A stretch of DNA of 46,550 nucleotides from a virus: the UHGV virus genome UHGV-0289467. One strand, 5' to 3'. Shown here piece after piece: positions 4,997 through 41,100 of the stretch (its first letter is position 1; the number at the start of each line of letters is the position of its first letter). Both the position numbers and the translations under genes were made by a program. The notes beneath the pieces are model-generated. The model was not told the DNA's origin, ran no database searches, and saw only the letters and a list, made by a program, of their open reading frames with translations.

Positions 4997-5212
4997 TCAA
5001 TCAACAGTCTTACCACGATGTAAAACGCCCGGTAGAGTTCTGTCCATCCATGACAACATTTGCGCTTCCTCGGCTTCATGGGCGGCCTCCATAGCAGCCA
5101 GATCAATGCGCTGCTCGATAGATTTAATGATTGACTCTGGCACATTAAGCATTTGCAGAGTCTCCCTGCAATCGCGCTTATGAACTTCTGTCACCTCCTG
5201 CCACTTTTTCAT
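4997..5212 (-). CDS. hypothetical early protein
   Basis: 71-aa ORF whose ATG overlaps the stop of the upstream HNH gene (ATGA). Confidence 0.4.
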   Translation of the reverse strand: MKKWQEVTEVHKRDCRETLQMLNVPESIIKSIEQRIDLAAMEAAHEAEEAQMLSWMDRTLPGVLHRGKTVD

Positions 5213-5730
5213 TCCACACCACCTTTTATCATTCTTTTTGGCCTATTGATTCCATGGTTTTCATGGAAACCATATTTCATTTCAGCTTCAAGTCTGGCCT
5301 TTATTGCTTCGCTCTTTTCTGAAAAGCGACCTAAGTGCAGCCTTGTTCCGTTTAAGACTATTTGCGCGTACCACTTGCCGCGCTTTTTATCAAAACAAAC
5401 ACCAACAACACCACTGGTGTTGTCGCTCCTGATTGAACTGTTTCTCGTGTTTTCTCTCCTGTTAACAAGCCTGAGATTCTCTATTCGGTTGTCATCTCTG
5501 ATGTGGTTGATGTGATCAATTTCCATGTCTTCCGGTATTGGTCCGTTAAATAGCTCCCAAACAATCCTGTGCTCATATGTCTGGGTGTATTTTACTTTTA
5601 CCTTTCGATAACCTGTCGTTGGCTCCAGGCACCCAATCCTTGCGCCAGCCTTTACGTTGTTTGACGGCTTAACCTTCCAGTAAAGCTTGCCGTTTTCGTA
5701 AACAAACAAGTCAATAAAGTTCATATCCAC
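5209..5730 (-). CDS. HNH homing endonuclease with C-terminal AP2 DNA-binding domain
   Basis: 173 aa; HNH core IDHINHIRDDNRIENLRLV followed by AP2-type motif GVVGVCFDKKRGKWYAQI…; paralogous to ORFs at 22936 and 34230. Confidence 0.85.
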   Translation of the reverse strand: MDMNFIDLFVYENGKLYWKVKPSNNVKAGARIGCLEPTTGYRKVKVKYTQTYEHRIVWELFNGPIPEDMEIDHINHIRDDNRIENLRLVNRRENTRNSSIRSDNTSGVVGVCFDKKRGKWYAQIVLNGTRLHLGRFSEKSEAIKARLEAEMKYGFHENHGINRPKRMIKGGVE

Positions 5731-13996: not shown

Positions 13997-14329
13997 ATGC
14001 AATATCAAGAACGTACTGCTGAATTACAAAACTTATATGCGGTTCGCGTAATAAATATGGTTTTAATGGGGATTGAGGTTAGTAAGTCGTCATACGTTGA
14101 TCGCTTTATTTACTCACTCTACAACGGCGTTAAATCTAATTGGGATGAAGATTGCACATGGACTGAGCACTTTGTTGAAAAACTTACCGAGGAGCGTGAG
14201 TCAATAAAAAATGGCTCTTATTGGAAGATGGGAGATTTTTTTAGATTAATTGCTGCTGAAGATAAGGAGTTCTGGGAGGCGATATGTGTCCCATTTAAAA
14301 CATGGAAAAGCATTCAGCTTTGCAATTGA
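13997..14329 (+). CDS. hypothetical protein
   Basis: 110 aa, RBS present, followed by terminator. Confidence 0.4.
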   Translation: MQYQERTAELQNLYAVRVINMVLMGIEVSKSSYVDRFIYSLYNGVKSNWDEDCTWTEHFVEKLTEERESIKNGSYWKMGDFFRLIAAEDKEFWEAICVPFKTWKSIQLCN

Positions 14330-14338
14330 TTACAGCTA

Positions 14339-14360
14339 GGCCCCGCAACGGGGCTTTTTC
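14339..14360. terminator. bidirectional rho-independent terminator
   Basis: GGCCCCGcaaCGGGGCTTTTTCTT. Confidence 0.7.
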
Positions 14361-16895
14361 TTATCTCCTGCTCCTTCTAATCCATCCAGAGCCTCGCTGT
14401 ACGATGTGATCGTTGCATGCATATCTGATTGCGTCAATGAAGTGGTTCCACGCATCCACAATATTTGTGAGCACGTTACCCGTCAGCTTGTCCACCTTGT
14501 AACTGTACATAGTGAACTCTTCCTGAGTCTGTGTGCAGCGGTCATGAATGATGATGCTGTCGCAACCCCTGAGCCAGGTTACACCCTCCTCCACGCTCCC
14601 GGGCCACTTATTGCATGGATGGATATCAAATCCTGCGCGTTTGATGTGACTGATTGTTTCTGGCCGAGAGCAGTCCCCATACCATCTTGCCTTCCTGGAG
14701 AGTGGGAATGATTGCTCCATCGCTGTAGGTGTGTCGGTAATCTCAAGGCCTACACGGCCGTATTCGCGCGCGACGTAAAGATTGCGTCGGTCATCAGGAA
14801 GTTTCTCAATGTAAACCTCAACCATCGCCGTTGCGTCCTGCGAGAATCCAAAGTCGATGCCAAAGTAAGGCCCATGCCATTCCGGCTTAACCTCGAAATC
14901 AGCAACGCGCCACTTACCGCCAAATACCTGCTCATCATTACGCTTATTAAAGCGCCCACCCCACACCCATTGATAGCGGTCGAAGTCGGTTTCTTTCATG
15001 CGCTGCATTTGGCTTGGGAGCGGAGTATCCCAGAACCACGGATTGTCTGAGTAATTACACTCGATAATCAGGTTTTCATCATCCTCATAGATGCCGCCAT
15101 TTTCGCGCAATTTATTATAAAAAGGCTCAACCCATATTTTCCACGTCGGGTCATGCTCTTTATTTGGGTTGAAAGTCACCCATATCTCTGACCCTTCAGC
15201 GCGGACTGTTGGGGTGAGGATTTCCCAGCTTGTCTGGCTGACGTTTTCCGCCTCCTCGACCCAAGCTACTGTAATGCCAGCGAAGCCTTTAACGGTCGTC
15301 TGGTTGCGATACAGCCCCTTAAATCTGAATTTTGCCTTCGTGCCTTTGTGGGTTATCTCATTATTGATGACGCGAAACTCTTTCGTTTCTCCCTTGCGAT
15401 CAATTTCGTCCTTCAGTTCCTGATATGAGCTATCTTCAATGGACTGCTGAATCTCACGAAAACAAGCTATCCTGTCAGGCTTAAAGCGTGCACGCTCCGT
15501 AAGTATTGTTGTTACTGTCCTTGTTTTTCCGCTGTTGTGTGTAACCGTGCCATCAGCAAGCAAGAAAAGATGATCGCCATCAAGAGTGAACCCAGCGTAT
15601 TCACCATGCCCGACATAAGACAATGACACCTCAGTCATCTTTCCACGGGTTGACTTGGTTTTCTCTGCTATCTTCCTTTTTACTCGGCATGGGATTGTAT
15701 GAAGGTCACCACTAACGAACACCTCCCATACGTCCTTTTCGTATATTCTTTTCTCACCTTTATATTCAAAGGTGATATCAGTCTTTTTGATTATGCTTGA
15801 CTTGAAGCCAAGCGATCTTGCCACATCCATCAAAGAGAAGGCCATTTCTTTATTTATTGATGTGAAAGAATAGCTTTTCTTTTTCTGGTCATAATGCGAA
15901 TCAGTATCCAATAGCCCAGCCAGAATCTGAAGTCTTACCTCTCTGCTGTTTTTGATATAGCAGTCAGGTATGTGTTTATTATTAATCACCCCAAGCTGCT
16001 GCATTTTAGTTAGTAACGGGTTGGTGTTCTTCCCCATGCCAGCAGCTCGACCATTAGTTATCGCATAGACAGGGCATCTATCATCGTCGCGAACCTTTAC
16101 CTGCATCCCGTATTGGCTTGCCACATTGTGAATGTAGTCAACTATCTCTGGATCAGGCGTGCACACTTCAACACCACGAGATGAACCATCACCTAACCAT
16201 AAACCAAGAAAGTACGGGTCAACTGGGACGCTTTGGTAATTAAAATCCCATCCTGTTCGCCACCCTTTAAAGACATGGCGGAACTTTTTGGAAGTTGCGC
16301 GCGACAAATATTCTGAAACACCAATATTCAGTATTTCAGGTTCATTCGGGTAATAACGATAAATTCTTTTACCATCCGGTGTTTTTGTCTCGTCACTGAT
16401 AGCAGATGGAATCTTTCGTAATGACAGTATGTGACTTGAGTTGACAGTGTAGTCATCAGCATATTTTTGATGAACCGTATACATGTCATCAAACCCCCGA
16501 CAGATGTTTAAAACATTTCGTGGTTTACTGTCTGGACCCATAACCTTATCGCCAACAACGATATCCTCTACGCGTTTTAGGCTACCATCAAACATCCTCA
16601 CCATCGTGCCGATGGCTAAGCATCCGCGCCCGCCAAACACAATCTTATTACGCTTGGGGTAAAGTAGCTTTTCCAGCTTTTCTGGTATCAGGTGATCAAC
16701 GCCAATATCAGAGTCGCTAACGTCATCAACTCCGCTTTGCGTCATTTTTAGTTTGCGAACAATCTGCTTATCTGTATTAACAACACCGAACACCGCAGAT
16801 TCAGGCGCATCAATCACGCCATCGCCAATAATCTCTTCGAGTTTTTCAATTGCTGGTGCTGAGAGTCTTTTGCGTGCCATATATAGATTCCTCAT
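14361..16895 (-). CDS. terminase large subunit, interrupted by an intein
   Basis: 844-aa ORF; N-extein ends …IVFGGRG, C-extein begins SGKTRTV… which rejoin to the Walker A box GGRGSGKT; C-terminal nuclease-like part; downstream of TerS. Confidence 0.9.
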   Translation of the reverse strand: MRNLYMARKRLSAPAIEKLEEIIGDGVIDAPESAVFGVVNTDKQIVRKLKMTQSGVDDVSDSDIGVDHLIPEKLEKLLYPKRNKIVFGGRGCLAIGTMVRMFDGSLKRVEDIVVGDKVMGPDSKPRNVLNICRGFDDMYTVHQKYADDYTVNSSHILSLRKIPSAISDETKTPDGKRIYRYYPNEPEILNIGVSEYLSRATSKKFRHVFKGWRTGWDFNYQSVPVDPYFLGLWLGDGSSRGVEVCTPDPEIVDYIHNVASQYGMQVKVRDDDRCPVYAITNGRAAGMGKNTNPLLTKMQQLGVINNKHIPDCYIKNSREVRLQILAGLLDTDSHYDQKKKSYSFTSINKEMAFSLMDVARSLGFKSSIIKKTDITFEYKGEKRIYEKDVWEVFVSGDLHTIPCRVKRKIAEKTKSTRGKMTEVSLSYVGHGEYAGFTLDGDHLFLLADGTVTHNSGKTRTVTTILTERARFKPDRIACFREIQQSIEDSSYQELKDEIDRKGETKEFRVINNEITHKGTKAKFRFKGLYRNQTTVKGFAGITVAWVEEAENVSQTSWEILTPTVRAEGSEIWVTFNPNKEHDPTWKIWVEPFYNKLRENGGIYEDDENLIIECNYSDNPWFWDTPLPSQMQRMKETDFDRYQWVWGGRFNKRNDEQVFGGKWRVADFEVKPEWHGPYFGIDFGFSQDATAMVEVYIEKLPDDRRNLYVAREYGRVGLEITDTPTAMEQSFPLSRKARWYGDCSRPETISHIKRAGFDIHPCNKWPGSVEEGVTWLRGCDSIIIHDRCTQTQEEFTMYSYKVDKLTGNVLTNIVDAWNHFIDAIRYACNDHIVQRGSGWIRRSRR
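15534..16622 (-). mobile_element. intein (363 aa) with LAGLIDADG homing endonuclease, inserted in the TerL P-loop
   Basis: starts with Cys (CLAIGTMV… block A), ends …LLADGTVTHN followed by Ser (+1); two LAGLIDADG motifs (FLGLWLGDGS and LAGLLDTDSH) in the middle. Confidence 0.85.
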
Positions 16896-16979
16896 CAGGG
16901 CATCATTGAAGTGAATGCGGCAGGCGGTGATGAGTCGCTTTTCGGGTGCCCCCTAGCCGCATTGATTATTATAAATCAG

Positions 16980-17396
16980 TTACTGTTGCTGCTCCAGTAA
17001 TTTCTCCAGTCGCTCAAGGCGTGCCGCAAGCTCGGTGACTTCCGCTACGTCAAGGCCGGTCTTAATAACTTCGGCAAACATCTTACCGATGTCGGCGGGA
17101 ATAATGCCGGATGCAATGCCACGAATGACTGCGTCAATCTTCTCTACCGGCGTACCTTCATCAGGGAAGTCAACCTCAAATACAGGGGCTACGGGCTTTG
17201 GTAGGGGGCTAAATCGCACGATAAGCTCTTTCATCATTGCAGTGTCGCGTTGATTAATAGCCATATCAACGATGGTGTCGTAAAGCGTCTCCTCGGTAAA
17301 CCCTTTTCGCTCTAGCGCCTCAATAAGCAGCTTGCGTTTGTCTTTCCCTCGCTTATTTGGTGGTTGATTTTCGCTACTGAATAGTTTTTTAGCCAT
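16980..17396 (-). CDS. terminase small subunit
   Basis: 138 aa basic N-terminus (NKRGKDKRKLLIEALERKGFTE), directly upstream of TerL. Confidence 0.65.
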   Translation of the reverse strand: MAKKLFSSENQPPNKRGKDKRKLLIEALERKGFTEETLYDTIVDMAINQRDTAMMKELIVRFSPLPKPVAPVFEVDFPDEGTPVEKIDAVIRGIASGIIPADIGKMFAEVIKTGLDVAEVTELAARLERLEKLLEQQQ

Positions 17397-17470
17397 AGAT
17401 AAAGCCTATCAATATTTCGCTATTTTTCCGTTATTCGATATTATATCAGATTCTACACCATGTCGCATGG

Positions 17471-17500
17471 CCAATAAAAAATAACCCGCCGAAGCGGGTT
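17471..17500 (-). terminator. rho-independent terminator (minus strand)
   Basis: AACCCGCcgaaGCGGGTT hairpin followed on minus strand by TTTTTTATTGG. Confidence 0.55.
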
Positions 17501-40942: not shown

Positions 40943-41020
40943 GCACCATTAGCTCAGCAGGATAGTAGCAACGGACTTCTAATCCGTAGGTCACTGGTTC
41001 GAATCCAGTATGGTGCACCA
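40943..41020 (+). tRNA. tRNA-Arg (anticodon UCU)
   Basis: GCACCAT/ATGGTGC acceptor stem, GGTTCGAATCC T-loop, anticodon loop CTTCTAA, encoded CCA; closely parallels E. coli argU architecture. Confidence 0.85.
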
Positions 41021-41023
41021 AAT

Positions 41024-41100
41024 TCCCGTTTAGCTTAACTGGTTAAAGCACCCGACTCATAATCGGATGATTACAGGTTCGAATCCTGTCGCGGGAACCA
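41024..41100 (+). tRNA. tRNA with CAU anticodon (Met elongator or Ile2/lysidine type)
   Basis: T-loop GGTTCGAATCC, D-stem GCTT/AAGC, anticodon loop CTCATAA, encoded CCA; anticodon arm CGACTCATAATCG identical to that of E. coli tRNA-Ile2(LAU). Confidence 0.7.

Follow-up and report, generated by a model that had tools for sequence, protein, structure and literature searches.

The large terminase gene (TerL) of the virus genome UHGV-0289467 is interrupted within its Walker A box by a class-1 intein of the PI-SceI type, and it is very probable, from the sequence and the modelled fold, that this element splices itself out of the terminase precursor and is probably mobile, moving between phages by homing with co-conversion of flanking DNA. 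The window, by which is meant the whole 46,550-nucleotide stretch that was analysed, is a ~46.5-kb siphophage genome of a Roufvirus-like group, and the insert of 363 amino acids (aa) occupies 15534..16622 on its minus strand, the strand of all features given below unless said otherwise. The anatomy and homology of the insert, its fold and its precise absence from close homologues are plain, and the matches to intein and terminase families lie far beyond chance resemblance.

The insert runs from Cys1 (codon 16622..16620, residue 92 of the open reading frame, ORF) to His362-Asn363 (15539..15534, the Asn codon 15536..15534 being ORF residue 454). These coordinates and the length of 363 aa, put forward earlier by a sequence-only reading of this DNA, are matched exactly in the translation, and the junction residues named there can all be read in it, with Cys first, His-Asn last and Ser next, in the contexts KIVFGGRG-CLAIGT upstream and GTVTHN-SGKTRT downstream. 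The same reading had the insert split the Walker A box so that its removal would regain a perfect P-loop, and the joined exteins do give GGRGSGKT, which aligns without a gap to the GGRGSGKS of Sf6 gp2 (PDB 4idh), the large terminase of a Shigella phage. The insertion point itself lies inside Walker A between the fourth Gly (Gly91) and Ser (Ser455), that is GGRG^SGKT, and so three codons upstream of the GK^[ST] position and outside the classic-site class, Lys^Ser/Thr within Walker A being the classic P-loop intein site (PMC5050341).

That the host gene is TerL is agreed upon by three family scores. In Pfam, where all matches in the TerL ORF exceed the curated cutoffs, Terminase_3 (PF04466) is found over ORF residues 454-648 with an expectation value (E) of 1.4e-31 (110 bits against a cutoff of 23.2) and Terminase_3C (PF17288) with E 1.1e-13 (52 bits against 26.7), and in NCBIfam the PBSX-family large terminase model TIGR01547 reaches 131 bits, its cutoff being 105. 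The protein thus has the N-terminal P-loop ATPase and C-terminal RNaseH-like nuclease of the Terminase_3/PBSX family at scores over the family thresholds, and the spliced 476-aa TerL matches Sf6 gp2 with E 3.6e-41. The precursor ORF (14361..16895) encodes 844 aa from its first ATG with the intein inside, and since RefSeq relatives have their gene start at the second ATG (M6, window position 16880) the precursor is probably of 839 and not 844 aa. The N-extein (16623..16880) then comprises 86 aa from M6 and ends in the first half of Walker A, with the GGRG codons at 16623..16634, and the C-extein (14361..15533; 390 aa and the stop) starts with the +1 Ser and the SGKT of 15522..15533 and continues through the remainder of the ATPase domain into the RNaseH-like nuclease domain.

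The splicing domain, of the Hint type, is formed from both ends of the insert. Its N-terminal part (16248..16622, intein residues 1-125) holds block A with C1 and block B with N61-x-x-H64 (inside 16419..16451), the latter reading N61-S-S-H64 and so conforming to (T/N)xxH; block B of PI-SceI has likewise the NxxH form (N76/H79). Residues ~72-122 make up a small subdomain where PI-SceI has its DNA-recognition region. The C-terminal part (15534..15662, residues 321-363) holds blocks F and G, which read GEYAGFTLDGDHLFLLADGTVTHN at 15534..15605. A Pfam search, which the sequence-only reading had proposed as a check, finds Hom_end_hint in the insert at E 3.7e-20, together with Hom_end (1.3e-9) and LAGLIDADG_3 (6.3e-8), and a phmmer search of the PDB sequences matches PI-SceI, the yeast VMA1 intein, at E 1.1e-20. 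In that alignment the C-terminal end DGDHLFLLADGTVTHN, after which the +1 Ser follows, falls on DSDHQFLLANQVVVHN of PI-SceI, and the NCBIfam model for intein C-termini (TIGR01443, intein_Cterm) passes its cutoff of 15.6 bits with a score of 16.3. Conservation was judged from an alignment of 63 homologous terminase inteins, in which H64, K216, D239, D241, H362 and N363 are invariant and conservation reaches at least 90% for C1, N61, D145, D348, G349 and D350; none of these residues is missing from the window intein.

An AlphaFold model of the intein made from the homologue alignment has a mean predicted local distance difference test score (pLDDT) of 93.6 and a predicted template modelling score (pTM) of 0.90, and when compared by Foldseek to the PDB it places all PI-SceI entries on top (E 1e-28, template modelling score 0.76), followed by archaeal VMA inteins, PI-PfuI, Prp8 mini-inteins (E 7e-9) and I-DmoI. 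In the model and by Foldseek the N- and C-terminal parts do come together as a Hint fold, and this PI-SceI-like sequence and fold bear out the earlier claim of a full-length intein. The element is, on the strength of its sequence and this model, a class-1 intein into which a monomeric LAGLIDADG endonuclease with two motifs is embedded, and the class follows from the Cys1 nucleophile, the NxxH block B, the terminal His-Asn with a +1 Ser, and a block F without Cys. A class-3 intein, which has a WCT triplet and a block F Cys, was considered and is ruled out, Cys1 being present and block F (GFTLDGDHLFLL) lacking Cys.

Between the Hint parts lies the homing endonuclease domain (15663..16247, residues ~126-320), delimited by Pfam, the PI-SceI alignment and the model. 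The two LAGLIDADG blocks that had been recognised from the sequence are found at residues 137-146 (YFLGLWLGDG, 16185..16214) and 233-242 (ILAGLLDTDS, 15897..15926), and each of the two helices has a catalytic acidic residue, D145 and D241 respectively. With phmmer these align to D218 and D326 of PI-SceI, and K216 (codon 15975..15977, in the context NNKHIP) aligns to K301. Both Hom_end and LAGLIDADG_3 match inside the insert, the order of secondary structure elements over residues 136-304 of the model fits a pseudo-dimeric alpha-beta-beta-alpha-beta-beta-alpha core, and the Foldseek matches to I-DmoI (E about 6e-6) and PI-PfuI span this domain. The endonuclease is likely to be active.

Phage genes often hold introns with LAGLIDADG or HNH genes, and an interruption such as this might in principle be a group I or II intron or a free-standing homing endonuclease gene. 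The 363 codons are in frame without a stop, Hint halves flank the endonuclease on both sides, and Rfam intron models give no match in 14000..17500 even at E<=1; the explanation is ruled out on these grounds and its probability is taken to be next to nothing. Nor does the opposite strand hold an ORF of 60 aa or more within the insert.

Close relatives of the gene exist with and without the insert. It is present in the TerL genes of Aeromonas phage pIS4-A and Vibrio phage pYD38-A (98.9% identical to that of the window), of Klebsiella virus KpV2811 (98.0%) and of the Salmonella phages Segz_1 and ST44/46/65 (89.5%). The Klebsiella phage KP591P1, with ~93% genome identity to the window over the matched parts, has a TerL of 476 aa from which exactly the 363 insert residues are absent, and the same exact absence is seen in the metagenomic contigs L005 and L027 and in the proteins P0131 and P0133; more intein-less alleles, ~75% identical, form a larger set. 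An N-extein of “type A” is seen only in intein-bearing alleles. The alignment to intein-less homologues called for in the sequence-only reading thus gives close homologues without precisely these residues, and the segment is no conserved domain of homologous terminases, an outcome that favours the intein. It also tells against taking the insert for a structural or regulatory terminase domain that stays in place, as do the Hint fold with every splicing residue and the Walker A box being split here and contiguous in the solved homologue Sf6 gp2. Nor does the gene have the look of a dead pseudogene, since a number of phage records with a named host strain contain it and purifying selection is seen across its whole length, and it is very improbable that either explanation holds.

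The nearest intein-less alleles (contigs L001, L005 and L027; proteins P0005, P0007, P0131 and P0133) have Walker A boxes that read GGRGSSKT or GGRASTKT. Such deviant P-loops were considered as an escape from the endonuclease, an idea that is weakened by the family varying there generally (GGRGSAK, GGRGGAK, GGRDGLK and others).

Splicing in the phage would proceed as follows. Late in infection TerL would be translated as the ~839-aa precursor, unable to bind ATP with its P-loop split by 363 residues. Cys1 would then undergo an N-S acyl shift, the thioester would be attacked by the +1 Ser, and Asn363, aided by His362, would cyclise and release the intein, after which an O-N shift would restore a normal peptide bond, leaving two products, a TerL of 476 aa whose loop reads GGRGSGKT and a separate intein of ~40 kDa. 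The dependence of terminase activity on protein splicing, as originally proposed, is a sound inference. The same precursor is found in the phage records that name a host strain, those of pIS4-A, pYD38-A, KpV2811, Segz_1 and ST44/46/65, and packaging depends on TerL; therefore the precursor must give active terminase in these phages, and working splicing is strongly implied.

Whether splicing is in addition conditional, responding to redox, temperature or DNA and so acting as a post-translational switch that times the terminase, is a separate matter, and one that would add to and not replace a selfish element. The intein sits in the catalytic P-loop, hence the precursor would be inactive, a retention of P-loop inteins for regulation has been argued in the literature (PMC4760082 discussion; PMC5050341), and extra cysteines are present in the intein at C41, C161, C189, C221 and C312. 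However, the sequence gives no specific sign of conditional splicing, and closely related viable phages manage without the intein, so that such a switch seems quite improbable.

That the element is probably mobile, as had been suggested, receives indirect support from its composition, from selection on the endonuclease, from its patchy distribution and from a recombination tract centred on the insert. With a G+C content of 42.7% the intein is poorer in these bases than the exteins (48.3%) or the window as a whole (47.5%). Comparison of diverged copies puts the ratio of nonsynonymous to synonymous substitution rates (dN/dS) of the N-terminal Hint part at 0.04-0.12 and that of the endonuclease domain at 0.18-0.28; the latter domain is therefore under purifying selection and not decaying. 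Segz_1 belongs to another genus, and the synonymous divergence (dS) from it climbs along the gene, from 0.07 for the N-extein through 0.18 for the intein to 0.68 for the initial 100 codons of the C-extein, reaching saturation after these. Close likeness to Segz_1 at the DNA level, with 0-8 and mostly 0-5 differences per 50-nt bin, is seen in a tract at 15446..16995, which takes in the spacer between the small terminase gene (TerS) and TerL together with the N-extein and the intein and stops ~90 nt into the C-extein. The borders of the tract are sharp, with 9-19 differences per bin upstream in the TerS gene and 9 rising to 23 downstream, and the tract is presumed to be a transferred or co-converted cassette. 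A breakpoint at the insertion site itself is seen against KP591P1, to which the C-extein is 90-97% and the N-extein ~50% identical in DNA. In a more distant phage (protein P0002, contig L053) the intein is 79% identical, the N-extein 42% and the C-extein 66%. Intein-plus and intein-minus contigs occur together in metagenome 3300045988.

Mobility is thus supported, and cleavage and homing are predicted. In a mixed infection the free intein would act as a monomeric two-motif LAGLIDADG endonuclease, cutting an intein-less TerL at or near the P-loop codons, and repair off the intein-bearing genome would copy the intein with flanking extein sequence, which amounts to homing with co-conversion.

Several further features of this region deserve description in their own right. 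The codon of the +1 Ser (15531..15533) is AGC in every intein-bearing allele, that of L053 included, and TCA, TCG or TCT in every intein-less allele, which would be a trace of co-conversion over a very short stretch or else a preference in the choice of target. An int-alpA RNA motif (RF02996) lies at 16900..16963 (42.6 bits with a gathering threshold of 35.8, E about 1e-6, Rfam), in the spacer that separates the TerL start from the presumed small-terminase ORF, and inside the Segz_1-like tract. The motif is found also in the intein-bearing Segz_1 (L003, 1933-1996) and KpV2811 (L004, 43203-43266), and ahead of the TerL gene of L053 there is a copy that stays below threshold at 27.4 bits; the intein-less loci L001 and L005, scanned up to E<=5, and the loci L016 and L027, scanned with the gathering threshold, give no match. 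It may travel with the intein cassette, or it may account for part of the spacer conservation. The ORF directly upstream of TerL (16980..17396, 138 aa) is a presumed small terminase by its position, has no Pfam match and among PHROGs matches only a family of unknown function, and it is highly divergent (9-25 differences per 50 nt) among phages with an identical TerL 5' region. Downstream, 90-240 nt from the insertion site, a 150-nt patch of the C-extein (15296..15445) has ~25 substitutions relative to the intein-bearing L008, L012 and L014, which are almost identical to the window across the remaining TerL; pIS4-A (L002) and KpV2811 (L007) have the window version of the patch, and it looks like a short gene-conversion patch.

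Set against ongoing homing is, in the first place, the want of a vacant site. The joined-extein site without the intein would read GTGTTTGGCGGGCGCGGA directly followed by AGCGGAAAAACAAGGACA, and the corresponding 29-mer (TTTGGYGGGCGCGGAAGCGGRAARACAAG) has no match in IMG/VR or in the JGI metagenomes. Two members of 475-476 aa in the same 90% protein cluster might have been taken for a vacant homing site, and are ruled out as such by their other N-extein, being the KP591P1-type allele. All sampled intein-less alleles differ in 7-12 of 24 nt around the site, and no susceptible natural target was thus found among them; the element could have come close to fixation within its lineage of alleles. 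Further, the second motif ends in DS (LLDTDS) instead of DG, the upstream spacer identity may come in part from the conserved RNA motif and not from co-conversion, and the TerL region is a mosaic in any case, as the 150-nt patch illustrates.

These points lend themselves to a different explanation, that of a splicing intein whose endonuclease is inactive or without a target, a fixed passenger inherited vertically and spread by ordinary recombination of TerL segments. In its favour are the lack of a vacant cognate site in the two large collections, the strong divergence around the site of all sampled intein-less alleles, the form of motif 2, and the mosaic TerL surroundings in this phage group, where TerS is highly divergent and the patch at 15296..15445 varies. 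A passenger would not be expected to keep the catalytic D145, D241 and K216, invariant or nearly so in the family, nor a full-length endonuclease domain that is modelled with high confidence and has a dN/dS of 0.18-0.28 and not about 1; moreover, between divergent hosts the intein is more conserved than the exteins. A mere passenger seems rather unlikely on this balance, and an intein that homes is preferred.

Among characterised systems the closest counterpart is PI-SceI itself (S. cerevisiae VMA1; PDB 1vde, 1lwt and 1ef0). The window intein shares with it the Hint domain with an embedded two-motif LAGLIDADG endonuclease, Cys1, the NxxH block B, the C-terminal His-Asn and the equivalents of D218, D326 and K301, and in both the P-loop region of an ATPase is the place of insertion. 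In contrast to PI-SceI it has 363 and not 454 aa, with ~23% identity and a shorter DNA-recognition subdomain, a Ser and not a Cys at +1, and a phage terminase and not a eukaryotic vacuolar ATPase (V-ATPase) as its host.

It is well recognised that phage inteins often reside in terminases (Novikova et al. 2016, PMC4760082), and surveys of actinobacteriophages count 293 terminase inteins (preprint 10.1101/2025.01.02.630785). The mycobacteriophage inteins TerL1-a and TerL1-b interrupt Terminase_1 proteins inside the Walker A loop (Kelley et al. 2016, PMC5050341), and like the element described here they are Walker A inteins of a phage large terminase with a patchy distribution among related phages. 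They differ in their host, which is Terminase_1 and not Terminase_3, and TerL1-a lies between the invariant Lys and Thr whereas the window intein interrupts the loop between Gly and Ser, three residues further upstream. Among mycobacteriophages that study found inteins only in the Terminase_1 and Terminase_6-like families (PMC5050341). Prophage terminases of the XtmB/PBSX (Terminase_3) type with inteins have been tabulated (PMC4760082, Table 3), and these share the TerL family, the intein family and the P-loop location with the window intein.

In a collection of 5.8 billion proteins, dozens of Terminase_3 clusters carry homologous PI-SceI-type inteins of 33-46% identity. These metagenomic precursors (P0050-P0120) have the same TerL family, intein family, Pfam set and P-loop location as that of the window. 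Two of them, P0056 (1195 aa) and P0060 (1108 aa), have two inteins each, the first of the P-loop PI-SceI type and the second a Hint_2/Intein_splicing element near the C-terminal nuclease motif. In isolated phages a tblastn search of a phage collection returns terminase copies of the intein at 95-98% identity and then helicase inteins at 37-40% over the full length. The latter belong to Klebsiella and Salmonella siphophages (JD001, MEW1, FSL SP-031, St162 and others) and differ in having a replicative helicase as host and in their lineage; DnaB-type relatives (P0110 and P0113) use the P-loop GK^T site. Counting all matches of this search, relatives of the intein are present in 748 phage records, of which about 300 are from Mycobacterium phages and 49 from “Stx2a-converting” phages.

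The classic GGRGxxK^[ST] site is used by 48 of the 62 homologous Terminase_3 precursors examined, and 11 have the site of the window (ten as GGRG^SGK[ST], one as GGRF^SSKT). In a neighbour-joining tree, which is distance-based and has long branches, the upstream-site inteins are spread over four groups that each have classic-site inteins as their nearest relatives; in 200 bootstrap replicates they are never monophyletic, and the site character requires 3-4 changes. A tentative explanation, possible though less likely than not, is that one intein family has moved repeatedly between GGRG^SGK[ST] and GGRGxxK^[ST], 9 bp apart, and that in this phage group it has also travelled as a cassette. Besides the intein itself the cassette appears to include the distinct N-extein allele, a +1 Ser codon that reads AGC and, upstream, the int-alpA-like RNA motif. 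If true, this would provide a natural series for studying how a LAGLIDADG intein shifts its target inside a single recognition site and how much of the neighbouring host gene is carried along.

The kind of element is well known and terminase P-loop inteins have already been described, and what is known of inteins or terminases is not changed by it; the only unusual trait of the window intein is the less common insertion point in the loop. The locus is of use as a clean, recent, intein-centred exchange tract between two phage genera, Roufvirus-like and Segzyvirus, and cultured intein-plus and intein-minus partners exist (KpV2811 and KP591P1, for example) for a direct homing cross. TerL trees are widely used in phage classification, and an unmasked insert of 363 aa with co-transferred flanks could distort them.

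Annotation passes over the intein. The inspected records of pIS4-A, Segz_1 and KpV2811, the hit-table features of pYD38-A and ST44/46/65 and the names listed for the 412-member 90% protein cluster all give only “terminase large subunit”, and an intein is mentioned in none of them. No description of this intein was found in the literature on the related phages (pIS4-A, pYD38-A, KpV2811 and Segz_1, and Klebsiella phage terminase inteins). The intein on its own matches phrog_36964, phrog_19299 and phrog_15, all labelled “terminase large subunit”; evidently these profiles include intein-containing members and can mislead annotation.

Elsewhere in the genome a free-standing ORF of 173 aa (5209..5730) encodes an endonuclease with HNH_3 and AP2 domains (Pfam 3.5e-21; PHROG “HNH endonuclease” 3.9e-68), probably a second homing endonuclease in the same genome. 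Two tRNA genes lie in tandem at 40943..41017 and 41024..41097 on the plus strand, with Rfam scores of 64 and 60 bits.

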